Assembly: GCA_964583105.1 (NCBI GenBank)
Contig: CAZOUV010000003.1
Location: 14,946 to 78,945 of the forward strand
Source: an uncultured Gammaproteobacteria bacterium
Lineage (GTDB): Bacteria; Patescibacteriota; Microgenomatia; UBA8517
DNA: 64,000 nt
Direction: 5' to 3'
How positions within the stretch are numbered: the first letter of the stretch is position 1; each line of letters starts with the position of its first letter. The notes under the pieces are model-generated. The model was given only the letters and a program-made list of their open reading frames with translations. It was not told the DNA's origin and ran no database searches. A program made the position numbers and the translations under genes. Positions 90-40,002 of this stretch are shown piece after piece.

Positions 90-641
90 TCATTGTTTTA
101 CCCACCAATATGTTGGCGGCTCAAACATACCCCGGTCCCTAATGCCGTATGGTCTTGGATCAATAATATTGGGAGTAATTTTATGGGCTTTGGTATAAGC
201 ATCCACCGCATCGGGGACTTGAACTCTGAAAGTTGAATAGTAATCATCTCCGGAGACAATTCCCCCAGTTTTTACTTTTTTGCTCCAGATAATGAGGTCC
301 TGGATAACATAATCAAACGAATGGTTCGCGTCGATGAATACAAAATCCAGGCTGTTATCGGGAATATCGTTGGCCGCATCCAAACTCATTTTATTTATAA
401 TAACAGCGTTATATTTGGAGAGTTTCTGAGAGGCAATAGCTTTAAAATTTTTATTCCTTTCCCAACTCCCCGAAAGACGGTTCCCGTGGTAGGGTCTCCA
501 GATGTCAATGCAGTAAAGTTTAAGGTTAGGAATTGCCTTAAACATACTTTCGGAAAACTCTCCCTGGGCAACGCCGATTTCTGCCCCAATGGTAAATTTA
601 AGTTCGGCAAAATATTCTAAAAGTTCATATTTAGATTTCAT
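90..641 (-). CDS. class I SAM-dependent methyltransferase
   Basis: 183 aa with a Gly-rich SAM-binding region (IGAEIGVAQGEFS) and the acidic motif DFVFIDANH, typical of Methyltransf_24-type O-methyltransferases in glycan clusters. Confidence 0.55.
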   Translation of the reverse strand: MKSKYELLEYFAELKFTIGAEIGVAQGEFSESMFKAIPNLKLYCIDIWRPYHGNRLSGSWERNKNFKAIASQKLSKYNAVIINKMSLDAANDIPDNSLDFVFIDANHSFDYVIQDLIIWSKKVKTGGIVSGDDYYSTFRVQVPDAVDAYTKAHKITPNIIDPRPYGIRDRGMFEPPTYWWVKQ

Positions 642-1366
642 TTTGGTTTAAAGTATAATTTTAAAATATCTTCGGCACGGCCCCAATATGGAATCTCATA
701 GGCGCGGATGTCGCCAAGCCTTTTTCTTTCTCCCCGGCTTAAATAGCCAAACGCTTCCGGATGACTAAAAACAATATTTGTTCCGACGGTATAAAATTCT
801 TCCGACGGCCGAACTGTTACCCCCAATTTTTCTTCATAGCGGCCGGGGTCTCCCCAATAATGAAGCGGAACTTTTTCATCGGGAACCCCCTTAAATTTAT
901 TAAAACGTTCTTCAAGGGCTTCCACGAGCATATTGCGCGGCGCAATCAAACTATTTACGACTTTTCTTTTATTTCTGAATGAAAAAATAGGAGGATCGCT
1001 CCAGGTAAAAAGTGACCACTTGGCCATGTTAAACGAAAAAATATCGGATTGGGGGAGGTGATAATGAAAATGCTCATACGAATATAGAATGTCATCTTCA
1101 GCCATAGCTACATATTTTGTTTTGGCTTCTTTGCATCCAATTAAAATTTGCCGATAAAGATTTAAATGAGATCGGCCGATTTCGCCTACGCAAATATTTT
1201 TACCAAAAACAATCGGTTTTTGGGAAACCGAAATTAAGGGAAGATCTCCAATCGCCTTAAGAAGTTGTTTTTTGGTATTTTCCAAGAAGTAAGGATTATG
1301 AGCATCAAGCCAATTACTAGTATAATAAACAACTGTCAAGTCGTCTTTTGTTACTTTCACTCCCAT
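638..1366 (-). CDS. hypothetical protein, possible nucleotide-sugar transferase-like
   Basis: 242 aa ORF; its stop overlaps the upstream methyltransferase start. It has an acidic EDD motif and sits in a GT cluster. No confident family assignment. Confidence 0.3.
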   Translation of the reverse strand: MGVKVTKDDLTVVYYTSNWLDAHNPYFLENTKKQLLKAIGDLPLISVSQKPIVFGKNICVGEIGRSHLNLYRQILIGCKEAKTKYVAMAEDDILYSYEHFHYHLPQSDIFSFNMAKWSLFTWSDPPIFSFRNKRKVVNSLIAPRNMLVEALEERFNKFKGVPDEKVPLHYWGDPGRYEEKLGVTVRPSEEFYTVGTNIVFSHPEAFGYLSRGERKRLGDIRAYEIPYWGRAEDILKLYFKPK

Positions 1367-1435
1367 ATTACGCCGCCCTTTTTTTAATTCGAATATACAT
1401 CACACTGTGCCAGTAGTCTTGTTGAGCGAAGTTGT

Positions 1436-2152
1436 TCACAACAGTTTAATAAAACCGCCCTTTTTGATCGTTAAGACCCCGTATTCGTAACGGTCCAAGG
1501 CAATCCTTAAGTTTTTGATTAACATGGGATCATGGCCCTGGGGCGGATGATAAAGCAGTCGTTTTAGGTTTGATTCGAGGGAAAGATAGCGATAATTAAG
1601 AAGAAGTATTTTAGCCCTGACCCACCCTACGCCTTTAGGTAAGAAGGTTTCGTAGCGGCCGCGTCCAAATTTGATGTTGATGGTCGGATTAAAAACAATG
1701 GTTTTGTCAAAAAGACGGGTTCTGGCTCCAAATTTACATTCATCATAAATTTGACCTTTAGTGGTCGGAAATTTTTCCGAGTACATGGTGTAGCCGCAGG
1801 TTTTAATTGCTTTCGTACCACGTTTTTTTTGTTCATGTAAAACTTTTATGAGATACCGATTATAAATAAATTCGTCTGCATCGACGCACATCACCCAGTC
1901 AGCTTCCCTGCGGCTGTATTTTTTATAGAGTTTTTCGAAACAGGCATTGTATTCCGCTTCAACCGGCCAACCGGGGGAAAATTTGTAATTTAATAATCGG
2001 ACTTTTCTATTAGCTTTGGCAATTTTGACGGTGTTGTCGGTGCTTCCGTTATCAATGATGAAGATTTTATCGGCGAAAGTGGAATAGTGTTTTAAAAAAT
2101 AAGGCAGTAGATCTTCTTCGTTCCTCATGATGCTGTAAATATGAGTTTTCAT
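1436..2152 (-). CDS. family 2 glycosyltransferase
   Basis: The N-terminus (IYSIMRNEEDLLPYFLKHY ... IFIIDNGSTDNT) matches the GT2 (GT-A fold) signature, and a DAD acidic motif is present. Confidence 0.6.
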   Translation of the reverse strand: MKTHIYSIMRNEEDLLPYFLKHYSTFADKIFIIDNGSTDNTVKIAKANRKVRLLNYKFSPGWPVEAEYNACFEKLYKKYSRREADWVMCVDADEFIYNRYLIKVLHEQKKRGTKAIKTCGYTMYSEKFPTTKGQIYDECKFGARTRLFDKTIVFNPTINIKFGRGRYETFLPKGVGWVRAKILLLNYRYLSLESNLKRLLYHPPQGHDPMLIKNLRIALDRYEYGVLTIKKGGFIKLL

Positions 2153-2389
2153 TTCGTCTAAATATTATCACATTTTTTCCAAAGTAGAATCTTCTTTATG
2201 GCTGACATACTACCACAACCAGGCCTTTTCTGCCAGTTGAAGGGGAATGTTCGATGGTTTCGAAAGAAACAATAATGTCTATCGGTTCTAGGGTGGGGGG
2301 GGAGATTGCCGGCATCGGAAAAAGTCACTGTTTGACCGTTACCATGGACTTTGCACAGGGGTCAAGACGATATCTGTTGAGAATAAAAT

Positions 2390-3244
2390 TTAGGGTGTCC
2401 ATTTGTTTCTGTCCTCCGGCCAGCCCGGAACCGGCCAAAATCTTTCTATGAGCCAAGTAAAAGGAAGAGTTTGTTTATGCCAGGCGGTATTTGTCAGCCA
2501 CCTATTGGTATAATTTGCTCCTTTTTCAGATTCTCCTTTCTCCAAGGAATAGCCTCTTCCTTGGGTCTTGTGAAGATGGGCGTACCAGGTCTTTTTGTTG
2601 GTGACCACTCTTCCTCCCGATAGCCAGCATTTTAAACCAATTTCCTGAAATTCATTACTGAATGTCCCGTAATTTTCTTCGTCTTCAAGTTCAAGTTCGT
2701 AAAAATAATCTTTATTCATAAACCAACAAGATCCTTGAGCAGACATATTGTCATCAATCATTATTTTAGCTCTTTTTTTAGCTCTTTCCTCCCATATTCT
2801 TCCGTGCAGGCCATCTTGCCAATTACCACTTGCATTTGGATATGTTAGATATTCGTAATCAACATCCGGCTTTCCTACGTCCAGAATTTTCCATTTTTCC
2901 GCATCAAGTCTTTTTCTGCGGGGAATAACAACCCAATTGTCATTACAGTAGGACATGAGTTCTTTATCAAATCCCTCGGCAAACATGCAGTGGGCATCAC
3001 ATTTTAAGATATATTTACCCTTTGCTATGGCAACTGCGGAATTAATTGCTGCTCTCATTCCCTGAGGCTTTCCTCTATGAATAGTTACAATTCTATCATT
3101 CTTATCAAGTGGGGGATTGGGCCAGTATCCGTCAAGAACTACAACCACCTCTATTTCATCTTTCGCTTTTGACAAAATATCATTAACGGTTTTTCCTAAA
3201 TACTGCTCGTTTCTTGAAGGAATGATTATTGATAATTTCGGCAT
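2390..3244 (-). CDS. family 2 glycosyltransferase
   Basis: LSIIIPSRNE ... VVVVLDG ... CDAHC is a classic GT2 N-terminal pattern; 284 aa. Confidence 0.65.
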   Translation of the reverse strand: MPKLSIIIPSRNEQYLGKTVNDILSKAKDEIEVVVVLDGYWPNPPLDKNDRIVTIHRGKPQGMRAAINSAVAIAKGKYILKCDAHCMFAEGFDKELMSYCNDNWVVIPRRKRLDAEKWKILDVGKPDVDYEYLTYPNASGNWQDGLHGRIWEERAKKRAKIMIDDNMSAQGSCWFMNKDYFYELELEDEENYGTFSNEFQEIGLKCWLSGGRVVTNKKTWYAHLHKTQGRGYSLEKGESEKGANYTNRWLTNTAWHKQTLPFTWLIERFWPVPGWPEDRNKWTP

Positions 3245-3322
3245 ATAAATTTGAAAAACAATTACAACTTTCTCTTAGCGGTATTAAACCAGAAATTAAT
3301 GCGGTAATCAATCAACTCTTTA

Positions 3323-3943
3323 TTAATGGAATATGTTATGGAAGTAGTCGTAGGAAAGAGTTTGGCGATTTTTCCAACTAATAGGAAAGTTTGAATCCCC
3401 TTTGGTGTAACGGAAAGAACCCGACATAGTATCTTCTTTCATTATGTACCAACCCCCGTATTTATCTACAAATCCGTAAAAAGAAACCTCTCCATAATTA
3501 TCAATTTCGCTTATTTTATAACTGTCAGTTGGTTTTAGCGATGAATTTTGGTTTGATGGTCCACTATCAAGTAGCGTTGCACCTTGATTAACAGATCTTC
3601 CTAGGAGCAAACTTTCAACCTTTTTGGTAAACAAGGAAAAAAGGAAAAAAGAAAATCCGGCCGCTCCGACAAGTTTCAGAAATGCTCTTTTGTCTATATC
3701 CACAATATCAACAGCTTTTCTCTCTGCACCATTATCCTGTTCAACGGCAACGACAAATTTCTCGGGGTTTGGGTTTTCACTTTTACGCCCGATGAATTTA
3801 AAAGCAAAATAAATAAGTGGGGGATAAAGCAAACTTGCAATTGCAAGTTGTGTGTAGTTTGATGCTGTTATAAAGGATATAACAATCATGGTTGCAACTA
3901 AAGCTACACAGATATAGGAGATAATTTTATTTGTTATTGTCAT
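3323..3943 (-). CDS. hypothetical membrane protein
   Basis: 206 aa with two or three hydrophobic helices near the N-terminus; its stop overlaps the downstream gene start (ATGA-type coupling). Confidence 0.35.
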   Translation of the reverse strand: MTITNKIISYICVALVATMIVISFITASNYTQLAIASLLYPPLIYFAFKFIGRKSENPNPEKFVVAVEQDNGAERKAVDIVDIDKRAFLKLVGAAGFSFFLFSLFTKKVESLLLGRSVNQGATLLDSGPSNQNSSLKPTDSYKISEIDNYGEVSFYGFVDKYGGWYIMKEDTMSGSFRYTKGDSNFPISWKNRQTLSYDYFHNIFH

Positions 3944-5172
3944 ATGTTTTCGTTTTCTACAACTTCCACCAGATCTGAAAAAATATACCCTAGACCATCC
4001 TCAAGTTTTATTTGATACCAGCTGTTGGTAAGAGAAACATATTCAAATATCTCTCCGTCTTTGGCACTAGCAACTATTTTGGAGTCGAAAGAGGGGTTCT
4101 CACGAACATTAACGGATGAAAGCTCTTTATCATTAATTTTGACCGTTACTAATTTTGTATCTTTTTCTGTTTCAGTTCTTATCCCCGCAACAGATTCTTT
4201 AGGTATTGCTAGAGAAGTGTCTATATTTTGAGTTTCGATTTCGGGTGTTACCGGGGTTTGTCTATTTTTAAATGCAGTTTGAGCTATTCTTAGATACTTT
4301 GATACTATATCTGTATTGTTTGATCCTACAGTACTGCGTACATTGTTAAAACCGAACGAAAAAAGCAAAATATAGATAGATGTAGCCAGAGAAAACTTAA
4401 AAAAAGAATATCCAAACGACCCGTTTGACTTATTTTTTCTGTTTGAATAAGGATTATCCTTTTTATTTGGAGGCTGTCTCCTCACAAGATGAGCGTATTC
4501 TTTATCTAAAAATATACACTCGCAGAGTTTGAGATCTTTTTCATCCAAATCGTAATTTTCAACAAATTTTTGATAATTTTCGATACTTTTTATTTTGGAG
4601 TGTTGACTGTTGTTAAAAATTGTCAAAACCAAATTGCTATTTAGCCACGGAAGCTTGTTTTTTCCTGTATATACATCATAAGAAGAATATTTACTACTTT
4701 CTAAAGCCTCACGGTGTAAATAGTTGCTTAAATAAAGAAGAGAAGATTCATTTTCGATAAGGGCGGACTTATAGGGCCCCGCAAATAGGGGGCCTTGATG
4801 GTTGTATTTTTTATTGTAATACATAGAGTATCTTGTAGAAAGAGATCTCATAAATTTTTCCAAAAAACCACCAGCCAATTGACACAAAACAAGATGAAAA
4901 TGATTGGGGAAAAGTGTATATACTATAAGATCAATTTTATTATGGTAATTCTGGGGTTGATATGATATACCCCGGTATTTTTTACCACGGATCTCAAACT
5001 CTTTTTGAAAGAAATTCGGATCAGTAATGGGACTAAGATATTCCTTTAAAAAACCCAGGAAAATTTCGTAGTCTTGCTTGTCGTTAAAGATATTATTTCC
5101 GGAAATACTCTTGTTTGATATATGAAAGAATCCATTTTCTTTATCAATACGTTTGATATACTTGGCAGGCAT
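3940..5172 (-). CDS. HUH (IS200/Y1-transposase-like) domain protein with TM segment and C-terminal SH3b domain
   Basis: The N-terminal approximately 160 aa has an HUH-like motif (NHFHLVL) and a downstream Tyr-containing helix (GPYKSALIENESSLLYLSNYLH) reminiscent of IS200/RAYT transposases. A central hydrophobic helix (FSLATSIYILLFSFGF) follows. The C-terminus (SVNVRENPSFDSKIVASAKDGEIFEYVSLTNSWYQIKLEDGLGYIFSDLVEVV) is SH3b-like. Confidence 0.4.
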   Translation of the reverse strand: MPAKYIKRIDKENGFFHISNKSISGNNIFNDKQDYEIFLGFLKEYLSPITDPNFFQKEFEIRGKKYRGISYQPQNYHNKIDLIVYTLFPNHFHLVLCQLAGGFLEKFMRSLSTRYSMYYNKKYNHQGPLFAGPYKSALIENESSLLYLSNYLHREALESSKYSSYDVYTGKNKLPWLNSNLVLTIFNNSQHSKIKSIENYQKFVENYDLDEKDLKLCECIFLDKEYAHLVRRQPPNKKDNPYSNRKNKSNGSFGYSFFKFSLATSIYILLFSFGFNNVRSTVGSNNTDIVSKYLRIAQTAFKNRQTPVTPEIETQNIDTSLAIPKESVAGIRTETEKDTKLVTVKINDKELSSVNVRENPSFDSKIVASAKDGEIFEYVSLTNSWYQIKLEDGLGYIFSDLVEVVENENI

Positions 5173-5628
5173 ATTTTCACAATACCTTTAAAGGATATAG
5201 ATTTCAAGTACCTTTTTGTGCCTAAAAAATGTACTTTAAAGCAGATAGCCTGTGTAAAAATTATTATAAGGTGTCTAAATAATAAGTTACCTAAGCGTTT
5301 TCTTGATATTCGATACAGAATTGTGTTCGGTTTCAAATTATTTAAAATTTAGCCTTGAAGTATAAGCTCCTTGGTGTATAAAATATGCAACATCAAAAGT
5401 GTTAAAAGAGTTTTTAATTACATTTGAATTATCTACATTTTTCTTTTAAAAACGGACACTTCCTTACTTATAAAAAATATAAATATACAAAATTTTTGTT
5501 AACCGTTTTTAAATAAACGTAGCGTTTAAATATTAATTTATATATTAAATCTATAGGTCTTTAAACAACCACCTTATGGTGTATTTTCTTAAAAACATGT
5601 TATATTTGTTGTAAGAGTATTTAAGGAG

Positions 5629-6147
5629 GTGAGTATATTGATAAAAAAGAATTCAAAAATAATACTGATAATCATAGGTGTTATAGTTCTTTCATTGATT
5701 GCGTTTTTCCTACTTAAATCAAAAAACTCGGGCTCAGATAATACATCTCAAGGGACTGTTTTTGGTTCGATCAAGGATGCAATTTCCAAATCATTAAGTA
5801 TTAAATGCGAATATAAAGTAGGGGAGAGCACAACCATTGCCTATGTTAGGGGCAAGGAAATGAGAATTGATGGAAATTGGCAGGGACAAAGTAACTCCTC
5901 CGTAATTATCAAGGAAGACAAAATCTGGTCTTGGGATAATCTAAAGAAAGAGGGGGCCATTATTCCTATTAACAAAGACGAACAGGATCAAACCATATCG
6001 GAAGATTTCATAGATAGTCTTGAAGAACAGAGAGATTTCTGTAAAGTTTCCGTTTATTCCGATTCCGTATTCACACCCCCGGAAGACGTTAGCTTTCAGG
6101 ATTTGGGAGACTTAAATAATCTCATGGTTCCAGGGATTTCCGAATAA
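5629..6147 (+). CDS. hypothetical membrane-anchored protein
   Basis: N-terminal signal-anchor (ILIIIGVIVLSLIAFFLL). AAGGAGG RBS at 5623-5629; the likelier start is TTG at 5638. It follows a roughly 290 bp AT-rich promoter region. Confidence 0.35.
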   Translation: MSILIKKNSKIILIIIGVIVLSLIAFFLLKSKNSGSDNTSQGTVFGSIKDAISKSLSIKCEYKVGESTTIAYVRGKEMRIDGNWQGQSNSSVIIKEDKIWSWDNLKKEGAIIPINKDEQDQTISEDFIDSLEEQRDFCKVSVYSDSVFTPPEDVSFQDLGDLNNLMVPGISE

Positions 6148-6169
6148 TTGGTTGTGATACTATAAAATA

Positions 6170-7630
6170 ATGTTGGTTTTAGTAGCGGTTTTTCCGCTTT
6201 TGCTGTTTGTAGTTCTTCTTTTGCTGGGGAAGCTTAAGGTTCTTTGGGCTTCAGTAATTTCTTTATTGGCCACGTCTGTCCTTACGTTTTATGTCTGGAA
6301 AATAGATTTAAAACTGTTTTTATCCAGTATATTAAAAGGTGGTTTTATATCTTTTGATATACTTTTAATCGTTTTCGGAGCGATCCTTTTTATAGGACTT
6401 CTAAAAAAGATAAATATTATAGAAAATCTTTGCTACTATCTCGGTACTTTTTCCCAGGATTTAAGAATTCAGGTAATACTTCTTGCATGGTTTTTGGAAA
6501 ATTTTCTGGAAGGAACGGCAGGGTTTGGAACTCCTTCTGCGGTTGTTGCCCCTATCCTTATAGGACTTGGAATAACTCCGATTTGGGCAGTTGCCATAGC
6601 GATGTTGGGGAACAGTGCAAGTGTTGTCTTTGGCGCGGCAGGAACTCCCATAAGGGTGGGATTTTCAGGACTTGATATTTCCCGGGTTCCATATTATTCG
6701 GGACTTTTTAATTTAGTCGGAATTTTAGTTCCCGTCTTTATGCTTTTTGCGGTGACTTATAAAAAGGAAAACTGGAAAAAGTATTTTTGGGAAGGACTTC
6801 CTTTTTCTGTTTTTTCGGGAGTTGCCTACAGTATTCCCGCTTTTTTGATAACTTATTTGGGACAGGAATTTCCCGCTATTTTAGGGTCTATAGTAGGAAT
6901 ATTATTTGTCATTCTTGCCATTAAATTTAAGTTTCTTCTTCCAAAAAATATAATGAAATCTAATAAACAAGAATTTACGGGTGAAAAAATTCCCTTGAAA
7001 AAAGTTATCTTTCCATATCTTCTTCTGGTTTCACTTTTGATTTTAGGAAAATTCCTTTTGGAAAAAGTAGGCTACAGTTTCTATTTCGGCCTTAACCATA
7101 GATTTAGTCTTTTTAATCCGGGAATTATATTTTTACTTACTTCTTTTATAGTTTTTCTTATTTGGAGGAAACACCTAAATGCCACAAAAATATTGATAAC
7201 AAATTCCATCAAAAAATCCATAGAACCCTTTTTGGTTGTTTTTTCCATGTCTGCCCTTGCCCAAATAATGATTAACTCTGGACAAACCGAGGTCATTGCT
7301 CAAAACCTGAAGACAAACCTGCTTCCTGTTATCTCTCCCTTTCTTGGAGCATTTGGTAGCTTCATGACAGGTTCCGCAACGGTATCTAACATAATGTTTG
7401 GTGGACTTCTTGCTAAAGCAGCAGTTGATCTGGGAATGATTCCTTCAATTATTCTTTCTTTGGGGGTTGTGGGTGCCGCCGCGGGAAATATGATTGCCCT
7501 AGCCGATATAATGCCGGCTCTGGCAGTTGTAAACTTAAAAGGCAAGGAAAGGAGTATTTTAAAAAGGGTGTTCGTTCCCTGTCTTATATATATTGCCTTG
7601 GTAGGTATTATTGGCCTTGCAGTAGTATAA
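6170..7630 (+). CDS. L-lactate permease (LctP) family transporter
   Basis: 486 aa polytopic membrane protein carrying EGTAGFGTPSAVVAPILIGLG, which resembles the LctP family signature. Confidence 0.55.
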   Translation: MLVLVAVFPLLLFVVLLLLGKLKVLWASVISLLATSVLTFYVWKIDLKLFLSSILKGGFISFDILLIVFGAILFIGLLKKINIIENLCYYLGTFSQDLRIQVILLAWFLENFLEGTAGFGTPSAVVAPILIGLGITPIWAVAIAMLGNSASVVFGAAGTPIRVGFSGLDISRVPYYSGLFNLVGILVPVFMLFAVTYKKENWKKYFWEGLPFSVFSGVAYSIPAFLITYLGQEFPAILGSIVGILFVILAIKFKFLLPKNIMKSNKQEFTGEKIPLKKVIFPYLLLVSLLILGKFLLEKVGYSFYFGLNHRFSLFNPGIIFLLTSFIVFLIWRKHLNATKILITNSIKKSIEPFLVVFSMSALAQIMINSGQTEVIAQNLKTNLLPVISPFLGAFGSFMTGSATVSNIMFGGLLAKAAVDLGMIPSIILSLGVVGAAAGNMIALADIMPALAVVNLKGKERSILKRVFVPCLIYIALVGIIGLAVV

Positions 7631-39678: not shown

Positions 39679-39749
39679 GGATCCGTCGTTTAACGGCAAG
39701 ACGGGTCTCTTATAAAGACCAAACGATAGTTCGACTCTATCCGGATCCA
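39679..39749 (+). tRNA. tRNA with UAU anticodon (tRNA-Ile, AUA-decoding type)
   Basis: Folded by hand. Acceptor is GGATCCG/CGGATCC. D-stem is GTTT/AGAC with loop AACGGCA. Anticodon stem is GGTCT/AGACC with loop CTTATAA. Variable loop is AAAC. T-arm is GATAG-TTCGACT-CTATC. Discriminator is A. U8, U33, A37 and G18G19 are present. Confidence 0.7.
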
Positions 39750-40002
39750 CTCAAAAAAGTTTTATTTTGATTACTTTTTAGTATTTAATTTTGATCCAGG
39801 AAGGTGTAGTTCCAATAAACCAAATACACCTCGAAAGGTCATCTCACCCTCAACCACTGGATTAATTGCTCGACCCGGAATTGGGAGAGTTACTACTCCA
39901 GCCACAAAACCCGCTATACCTATCGCAAGATTATCTCTTGTAAAGCCTAAAAAGTTCCGTGGTTTATTTTCAAGTAATTTTTCTCTTTCAGACACTTTAT
40001 AT

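Follow-up and report, generated by a model that had tools for sequence, protein, structure and literature searches.

The window analysed here is a stretch of 64,000 nucleotides (nt) of contig CAZOUV010000003.1 (assembly GCA_964583105.1), from an ultrasmall bacterium of the Candidate Phyla Radiation (Microgenomates), and the gene in question lies near its start on the minus strand (Table 1). It encodes a protein of 410 amino acids (aa), in which a Y1 HUH domain, a helical extension, one transmembrane (TM) helix, a disordered linker and a bacterial SH3 (SH3b) domain follow one another; gene and protein are called the fusion gene and the fusion protein below. An earlier note, made from the letters of the window, had described an HUH domain joined through a TM segment to a C-terminal SH3b domain, and Pfam, AlphaFold2 (AF2) and Foldseek all agree with this architecture. 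Pfam SH3_3 (PF08239) matches residues 352-402 above its cutoff (E=8e-12; 45.6 bits vs 27), and the profile matches of the same part are 4krt (E=3e-15), 2krs and 2kq8. Pfam Y1_Tnp (PF01797) matches residues 77-154 just under its gathering cutoff (E=1.4e-4; 22.4 bits vs 23), and the NCBIfam family REP_Tyr_transpos gives a match far under its cutoff (E=5e-4; 20 bits vs 80). No helix-turn-helix (HTH) or winged-helix family was found in the protein by the Pfam and NCBIfam scans.

Table 1. Positions of the features at the fusion gene and in the genes downstream of it (window coordinates)
Feature	Position	Strand	Basis
HUH-TM-SH3b fusion gene, 410 aa	3940..5172	-	Single open reading frame (ORF), ATG start; end coordinate includes the stop codon
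Y1 HUH core, residues ~12-160	4693..5139	-	Pfam Y1_Tnp; Foldseek 4er8 and 2xo6; motif alignment to RayT-annotated relatives
HUH motif H91-F92-H93	4894-4902	-	Conserved-residue counts
Putative nucleophile Y151 (in 'YLHRE')	4720-4722	-	Alignment to RayT-annotated relatives
Helical C-terminal extension of the HUH module, residues ~161-226	4495..4692	-	AF2 helices 165-218, pLDDT >90
Single TM helix, residues 257-283	4324..4404	-	AF2 helix, hydropathy, lysine/arginine (K/R) bias
Extracytoplasmic linker, residues 284-339	4156..4323	-	Low AF2 confidence; length and sequence variable in the alignment
SH3b domain, C-terminal, residues ~340-405	3958..4155	-	Pfam SH3_3; profile matches 4krt/2krs/2kq8; Foldseek 2krs
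Relic of the 3' palindrome, codons 228-235	4468..4491	-	CTTGTGAGGAGACAGCCTCCAAAT = LVRRQPPN
Promoter and palindrome	5179..5208	-	Promoter scan, pattern match, locus comparison
Partner gene, 206 aa	3323..3943	-	ATG overlaps the stop of the fusion gene (ATGA, 3940-3943)
GT2, 284 aa	2390..3244	-	Pfam
GT2	1436..2152	-	Pfam
Conserved gene without assigned family, 242 aa	638..1366	-	Gene table
Methyltransf_24	90..641	-	Pfam
Downstream same-strand glycosylation genes together	90..3244	-	Pfam assignments

The AF2 model of the fusion protein, built on 34 homologs, has a mean predicted local distance difference test (pLDDT) score of 79.7, with values >90 across most of residues 10-220 and 340-405 and <50 at residues 305-336 of the linker, and it shows one long helix (257-283) between disordered segments. 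In the Foldseek search against PDB, the SH3b part matches 2krs and 2kt8 (TM-score 0.77-0.78), and the HUH part matches the RAYT-REP complex 4er8 (TM-score, TMt, 0.64) and ISDra2 TnpA 2xo6 (TMt 0.62, root-mean-square deviation 2.6 over 134 columns; TMt 0.62-0.65 for 2xo6 and 2xm3). To place the two domains relative to the membrane, 70 family members were compared. There is one strongly hydrophobic segment per protein, and K/R residues flank it more on the N-terminal side (2.87) than on the C-terminal side (1.6), with 49 members biased to the N side and 8 to the opposite side. From the single TM segment and the K/R enrichment ahead of it, an N-in/C-out topology is predicted, with the HUH domain in the cytoplasm and the SH3b domain outside, as the earlier note had expected. 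The conserved columns of the TM helix are F267, L270, G274 and N277, and those of the helical extension are the 'SSY' motif, W176, Y200 and F203; the extension itself is common to the standalone paralogs of ~225 aa. A beta-hairpin insertion at residues 56-70 was considered as a fusion-specific feature and rejected, as it is present in the nearest standalone paralogs too. One family member (L019:2984-4381) carries two tandem SH3b domains behind the TM helix.

A database search gave about 40 full-length homologs at 32-43% identity, most of them with precomputed PF01797 and PF08239 assignments, and their clusters mostly have a single member and a single contig. With residues 1-285 as query, phmmer found 179 cluster representatives (clusters at 50% identity) at E <=1e-30, and about 130 of the best 150 are of fused length (335-473 aa). 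In their source records the homologs are named "SH3 domain-containing protein", "putative transposase" or "hypothetical protein", and nothing more specific. A scan with one genome per species gave 74 loci, whose named hosts are Woesebacteria, Levybacteria, Daviesbacteria, Gottesmanbacteria, Roizmanbacteria, Amesbacteria, "Microgenomates", WWE3 and a few Saccharibacteria; L060 and L072 among the loci are a 100%-identical assembly duplicate. Many records of metagenome-assembled genomes that bear the module (L012, L013, L015, L019, L020 and ~25 others) are titled "uncultured Gammaproteobacteria" or "Pseudomonadales" (TPA_asm). As the module is otherwise seen only in Microgenomates, WWE3 and other Patescibacteria, these titles look like wrong or placeholder taxonomy.

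HUH class, catalytic residues and domestication

Domesticated Y1 HUH transposases, the RAYTs (REP-associated tyrosine transposases, where REP stands for repetitive extragenic palindromic), are widespread, and their cellular roles are unclear. The N-terminal domain of the fusion protein aligns with RayT-annotated proteins of ~225 aa and shares with them H.YN[KR]G, NHFHLL, Y(S/A)MYYN, G.LF.G.[FY]K, Y(I/L)H and SSY. In this alignment Y151 of 'YLHRE' falls on the Tyr of 'YIHLNP' in the relatives, so that Y151 is the counterpart of the catalytic Tyr. Serine motifs downstream of the core are described for class 2 TnpA-Y1 proteins (PMC6006769). Judged by these motifs and by the flanking palindromes, the domain probably belongs with RAYT/TIRYT (TnpA-REP, class 2) and not with IS200 proper, which keeps the Y1 HUH fold of the earlier "IS200/RAYT-like" assignment and narrows its class.

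The catalytic residues were counted in 70 distinct fused proteins, of which 57 keep H91, 63 keep H93 and 48 keep Y151. In 22 of the 70 another residue (H, F, S, K or D) stands in place of the Tyr, or a gap in one truncated copy; His (9) and Phe (7) are the most frequent. Altogether 29 of 70 fused proteins (41%) have at least one position of the H-H-Y triad changed, against none of 37 true standalone paralogs of ~225 aa (Fisher p=4e-7), which indicates that catalysis is dispensable in the fusion clade. The non-catalytic residues N20, R114, Y115 and S164 hardly vary among the fused proteins, or do not vary at all. The conservation of His and Tyr thus holds for the window protein, which retains H91, H93 and Y151 as do 41 of the 70 members, and does not hold across the family; given its intact triad, the window protein may have residual activity. 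Copies of the module in visible decay were also seen, namely L041 (split ORF), L069 (SH3b lost), L074 (truncated, with a frameshifted partner) and L080 (internal deletion). The HUH/Tyr residues are mutated in L069, L074 and L080, and L080 lies in the same genome as the intact module L030.

The gene encodes a domesticated HUH domain, probably of the RAYT/TIRYT type (class 2 TnpA-Y1), and is no copy of an insertion sequence (IS). No second copy of the fusion gene was found in the 64-kb window and no tnpB among its neighbour genes, in line with the earlier note, to which no second transposon gene was obvious nearby. An ortholog (P0002, 42% identical) has the same class-II tRNA-synthetase-like, elongation factor P (EF-P) and cupin neighbours as the window, and by this shared synteny the position of the fusion gene is old and stable. 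In a neighbour-joining tree, all 69 retained fused N-domains fall in one clade, with two decayed copies inside, which is consistent with a single fusion event. Single copy, missing tnpB, stable synteny, one clade and the frequent catalytic loss all agree with the exapted, non-mobile HUH domain proposed before. Against its own proposal the earlier note had set an N-terminal domain without HUH fold, or typical IS200/IS605 ends with an adjacent tnpB; what we found is a fold matching 4er8 and 2xo6, no left or right IS ends (LE/RE) and no tnpB.

Palindromes at the ends of the HUH module

Standalone RAYT/TIRYT-like genes with intact HUH/Tyr residues exist in genomes of the Candidate Phyla Radiation (CPR), at L038, L040, L044, L049-L052 and L054-L081, at ~6001-6700 of each locus. 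Matching imperfect palindromes lie on both sides of these standalone paralogs, just upstream of the gene at one end and, at the other, across its stop codon or directly after it. For example, GCCTCGCAAGG-CCTCC-CCTTGCGAGGC is found at both flanks in L056, and CTTGCAGGGTTGTTCCTTTCAAGG at both flanks in L050. The 5' and 3' flanks match over at least 10 nt in 26 of 27 standalone paralogs, with a median of 20 (a capped value) vs a median of 7 in cross-locus controls. The stem sequences vary between lineages and are palindromic all the same. Palindromes on both sides of the gene are the arrangement described for RAYT/TIRYT genes (PMC3733652), and PMC6006769 gives the same flanking arrangement for subclass 2.1. 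The standalone paralogs were also considered as recent IS copies, which was rejected: a pair from one genome (L040/L051) shares ~66% DNA identity, and the similarity stops at the palindromes.

The fused genes have the corresponding element at their 5' side. In 33 of 43 fused loci the element tACTTGCAAagtCTCtcCTTtCAAG (CTTGNAA-N9-TTNCAAG) lies 35-36 nt ahead of the ATG. Over the 75 nt before the ATG, 41 of 43 loci have at least 9 of its 12 core positions, and 22 copies are perfect. It is the same element as that of the nearest standalone sisters L038, L040, L044 and L050. In the fused genes the palindrome coincides with part of a sigma-70-like promoter, its left arm being the -35 box and its right arm lying in the spacer; in the family this promoter has a TTGCAA -35 box, then 17 nt, then a TAnnnT box ending 6-7 nt ahead of the ATG, with no Shine-Dalgarno sequence. 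In the window, the -35 box TTGAAA (5207-5202), a 17-nt spacer and the -10 box TATTGT (5184-5179) are followed by the A of the ATG after 7 nt, again with no Shine-Dalgarno sequence, and a generic promoter scan independently selects the same TTGAAA-17-TATTGT (5207->5179). From this spacing, the mRNA of the fusion gene would be leaderless.

These palindromes were recognised by locus comparison only. Generic scans for IS200/IS605-type hairpins and repeats in 3000-6200 gave nothing convincing, and the 456-nt upstream region folded as single-stranded DNA (ssDNA) showed no convincing structure (z=-1.6). Rfam returned only tRNAs, both in 3000-6000 (E up to 1) and in the whole window (gathering thresholds). 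The statement of the earlier note that no hairpins are obvious nearby therefore agrees with the generic scans, and has to be amended by the degenerate palindromes at 5186..5208 and at codons 228-235. Besides, the palindrome is not dispersed in the window, where 6 matches at <=2 mismatches compare with 7.8 expected.

The second palindrome of the fused genes lies inside the reading frame. Its core (<=2 mismatches) is found at codons ~196-242 in about 22-25 of 43 fused genes, at the place where the standalone proteins end, and mostly in frame 0, as CTT GAA AGG AGA GAC CTT GCA AG (LERRDLAS). Within it the synonymous codons are nearly fixed: in counts uncorrected for phylogeny, CTT encodes Leu in 19 of 20 and 13 of 13 instances vs a background of 27%, and AGG encodes Arg in 13 of 13 vs 19%. 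As a control, the protein-invariant partner motif QLA[IV]A uses all six Leu codons, and by this comparison the internal element seems constrained as nucleic acid. Members with a dead triad retain palindromes (e.g. L021, L024, L043, L060), and some keep both (e.g. L024, L043, L060); since members without the nucleophile still hold both palindromes, binding is favoured over cutting. At several loci, including L013, L021, L023 and L027, the intragenic palindrome (codons ~215-235) is followed by (T/C)AATGT at the spacing of the 5' -10 box, and there might be an internal promoter there, giving an HUH-less TM-SH3b product.

A third palindrome, the perfect 18-nt AACTTGCAATTGCAAGTT at 3832-3849, corresponds to partner codons QLAIAS and contains half-sites of the promoter palindrome. 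It was rejected as a probable coincidence, because the DNA of 30 other partner genes does not conserve it.

Partner gene and glycosylation operon

The gene after the fusion gene encodes a second membrane protein, the partner. For the loci scored with hidden Markov models of the N-domain, the TM segment, SH3b and the partner, the partner lies directly downstream on the same strand in all distinct fused genes (43 of 43) vs none of the true standalone HUH genes (0 of 29). L041, L069 and L074, "standalone" genes with a partner, are the visibly decaying fused copies and were set apart from the true standalone genes. A homolog of the window's 284-aa GT2 gene occurs within 7 kb downstream of 31 of 43 fused modules vs 0 of 29 true standalone genes. 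The gene tables of the loci give the same picture, with the fusion gene, then a gene of ~200 aa without Pfam family, then usually a GT2 and a methyltransferase gene. Upstream of the fusion gene the neighbours change from locus to locus, so that the cluster starts with this gene. Fusion gene and partner thus form a two-gene module, and they are usually the first genes of a GT2/methyltransferase operon. The earlier note had placed the gene inside a glycosyltransferase cluster with translational coupling; the coupling is borne out by the ATGA overlap, with a conserved membrane protein and not a glycosyltransferase as the coupled gene, and the fusion gene is the first gene rather than an embedded one.

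The partner family has at least 108 homologs of ~190-225 aa, without any Pfam, NCBIfam or PADLOC family match to the partner; PADLOC gave no defence-system match for the fusion protein either. Partner homologs are 39-57% identical, so the partner is better conserved than the fusion protein. Its AF2 model has a TM hairpin (residues 3-50) from which a loop leads to a third TM helix, and a confident four-stranded beta domain (residues 143-204) forms the end. If the K/R bias is read as for the fusion protein, this C-terminal beta domain should be extracytoplasmic. Ahead of the third TM helix lies the motif 'DIDKRAFLK', in which D..R.FLK is invariant in the family; the motif resembles a Tat signal, but with KR.

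Some neighbourhoods have further genes of their own. In L005:1-5394 and L008:1-6011 the gene tables list giant ORFs, with products of 10,025 aa and 2,241 aa, a few kb ahead of the module, and in L005 and L009 a convergent dCache_1 sensor gene follows right after the partner. Upstream of the module in L003 (3076-4724), an otherwise gene-less stretch of 3 kb codes for a 23S-rRNA intervening-sequence protein and a LAGLIDADG endonuclease; presumably this is an intron-containing rRNA gene. In the window itself, ARAGORN finds a tRNA-Ile with a UAU anticodon at 39679-39750 on the plus strand, an anticodon that is uncommon in bacteria.

Proposed mechanism and comparison with known systems

The overall best explanation, for which we see about as much reason to believe as to doubt, is that a domesticated RAYT/TIRYT HUH fusion serves as a membrane-tethered, palindrome-binding (auto)regulator or sensor of an envelope glycosylation operon. 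The data show the domestication and the fusion, a predicted topology, the link to partner and operon, the loss of catalytic residues and the upkeep of the palindromes; the regulatory role is inferred from them. In one Microgenomates/WWE3 ancestor, the reading frame was most likely extended through the 3' flanking palindrome of the element, and this read-through added the TM helix and the extracytoplasmic SH3b domain. The fusion has since been passed on together with the ~200-aa membrane partner, the ancestral 5' palindrome being kept in a leaderless-type promoter and the 3' one in the coding sequence against synonymous drift. The cytoplasmic HUH domain may still recognise its cognate palindromes, either in duplex DNA or as hairpins extruded from it, and one of these targets would be the promoter of the operon itself, where the protein could work as an (auto)regulator that binds DNA while tethered to the membrane. 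The status of the cell wall or cell surface would be reported by the SH3b domain together with the external beta domain of the partner, and the state of the regulator would be set in this way, in a logic like that of ToxR/ToxS with a decayed nuclease as the DNA-binding module. A wider claim can be put forward only tentatively, and it is possible though rather doubtful: that the protein stands for a new class of transmembrane one-component transducer, in which a decayed RAYT-type HUH domain reads former REP-like ends (the promoter/operator and the intragenic site) and couples the sensing of wall or host surface, by SH3b and the partner, to surface glycosylation in CPR bacteria.

Several points speak against the regulator model, which is drawn from architecture and conserved DNA. 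Both elements of the window are degenerate: its 5' palindrome, CTTGAAA-N9-TTTAAAG at 5208-5186, has 11 of 12 core positions, and its internal relic CTTGTGAGGAGACAGCCTCCAAAT agrees with the family consensus CTTGAAAGGAGAGACCTTGCAAG at 16 of 23 positions. Promoter function by itself could account for the conservation of the 5' element, whose left arm is the -35 box. Covariation in 36 fused 5' palindromes is not above that of shuffles (73.1% paired vs 72.5%; 129 of 500 shuffles reach the observed value), so that hairpin and duplex recognition cannot be told apart. The internal palindrome may act as RNA or as an internal promoter and not as a protein-binding site, and its codon counts carry the phylogenetic caveat given above. 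Besides, 12 of 43 modules, several of them on short contigs, have no GT2 gene within 7 kb, and the partner has no match at E <0.1 in the Foldseek search against PDB, the best one (E=0.1) being uninformative.

A rival model does without DNA binding; in it the HUH domain has been fully repurposed as a platform for proteins or ligands and, with the partner, docks soluble glycosyltransferases and methyltransferases at the membrane. The SH3b domain would then position the complex on the cell wall, and the conserved upstream DNA would be a promoter only; RodZ, whose cytoplasmic HTH binds MreB, may be compared. The tight operon link to GT2 and methyltransferase genes suits such a scaffold, as do the decay of catalytic residues beside invariant surface residues, the 5' palindrome without covariation and a partner more conserved than the fusion protein. 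What it leaves unexplained is the upkeep of the internal palindrome at synonymous sites, measured against the codon control of the partner, and the conservation of the right arm, which lies in the promoter spacer, across proteins of 30-45% identity. We regard the scaffold as unlikely.

The triad kept in the window protein and in 41 of 70 members raises the question of whether those members are still membrane-anchored ssDNA endonucleases or transposases, which would cut and rejoin the flanking palindromes or other ssDNA, for instance in DNA uptake or in the mobilisation of REP-like elements. Palindromes still flank the HUH-coding module, and the standalone sister paralogs look fully functional, both of which fit an active nuclease. 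This is very unlikely all the same, as 41% of the members lack a catalytic residue yet keep module, partner and palindromes; moreover, the palindrome is not dispersed in the window, no second gene copy is present there and the synteny is stable. The "putative transposase" among the source names and the weak Y1_Tnp match could point to an ordinary IS200/IS605 copy, or to a transposase joined to an SH3b gene by faulty assembly or annotation. This explanation is refuted to near certainty by the same continuous ORF in ~130 clusters (50% identity) from many assemblies, by the missing tnpB and second window copy, by a length about three times that of IS200 TnpA and by the Y motif, which is YxH and not the Y---Q given for subclass 1.1 in PMC6006769.

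Among known systems, the RAYT/TIRYT proteins (TnpA-REP, class 2) with their REPtrons and TIRtrons (PMC3733652 and PMC6006769; structure 4ER8) are alike in the HUH/Tyr fold, in the motifs H.YN[KR]G, NHFHLL and YxH with a downstream SSY, in being single-copy chromosomal genes and in the cognate palindrome just upstream, which the closest standalone paralogs have on both sides. The fused family differs in the TM helix and extracellular SH3b domain, in a 3' palindrome absorbed into the reading frame, in the 41% of members without a catalytic residue, in an obligate membrane partner and in the link to a glycosylation operon; besides, there is no dispersed REP family in the window. For subclass 2.1, Quentin et al. 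(PMC6006769) describe HTH or DnaA-like C-terminal extensions, and no mention of TM or SH3 fusions was found in the sections covered. A full-text literature search found no Y1_Tnp-SH3b protein and no membrane-anchored HUH protein. With IS200/IS605 TnpA (subclass 1.1; IS608, ISDra2) the fusion protein shares the Y1 HUH fold, whereas the window gene has no LE/RE ends, no tnpB, no multiple copies and no Y---Q motif, its product has 410 aa vs ~130-150 aa of TnpA, and its downstream end overlaps the partner by 4 bp. The SH3b modules of autolysins and endolysins (4krt, 2krs, 2kt8) are alike in sequence and fold; here the domain stands without a hydrolase, behind an N-terminal TM helix that joins it to a cytoplasmic HUH domain.

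ToxR/ToxS- and CadC-type proteins are bitopic membrane one-component regulators, in the ToxR/ToxS-like case with a cytoplasmic OmpR-type winged helix that binds DNA. As a functional analogy only, the fusion protein resembles them in its layout: a fold of nucleic-acid-binding type lies in the cytoplasm, a single TM helix follows, and the putative sensor domain is outside. A gene for a small, co-transcribed membrane partner comes immediately downstream, and the operon that the protein possibly controls is adjacent. The fusion protein differs in its HUH fold in place of the winged helix and in the SH3b nature of the external domain; having no winged helix, it is no member of the ToxR/ToxS family.

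In conclusion, one domain occurs in two forms, an intact standalone form flanked by palindromes and a membrane-tethered, catalytically decaying fusion that keeps its cognate DNA elements. The coexistence of the two is a clean natural experiment, in which binding without cutting is directly testable, and the fused genes offer an example of a REP-like end absorbed into a reading frame. The family also points to an uncharacterised two-protein membrane module at the head of cell-surface glycosylation operons in Microgenomates, bacteria whose envelope biology and host attachment are poorly understood. If the fusion protein is a regulator, it would be the first case in which a TnpA-Y1 transposase, rather than TnpB/IscB, has been exapted for gene regulation.

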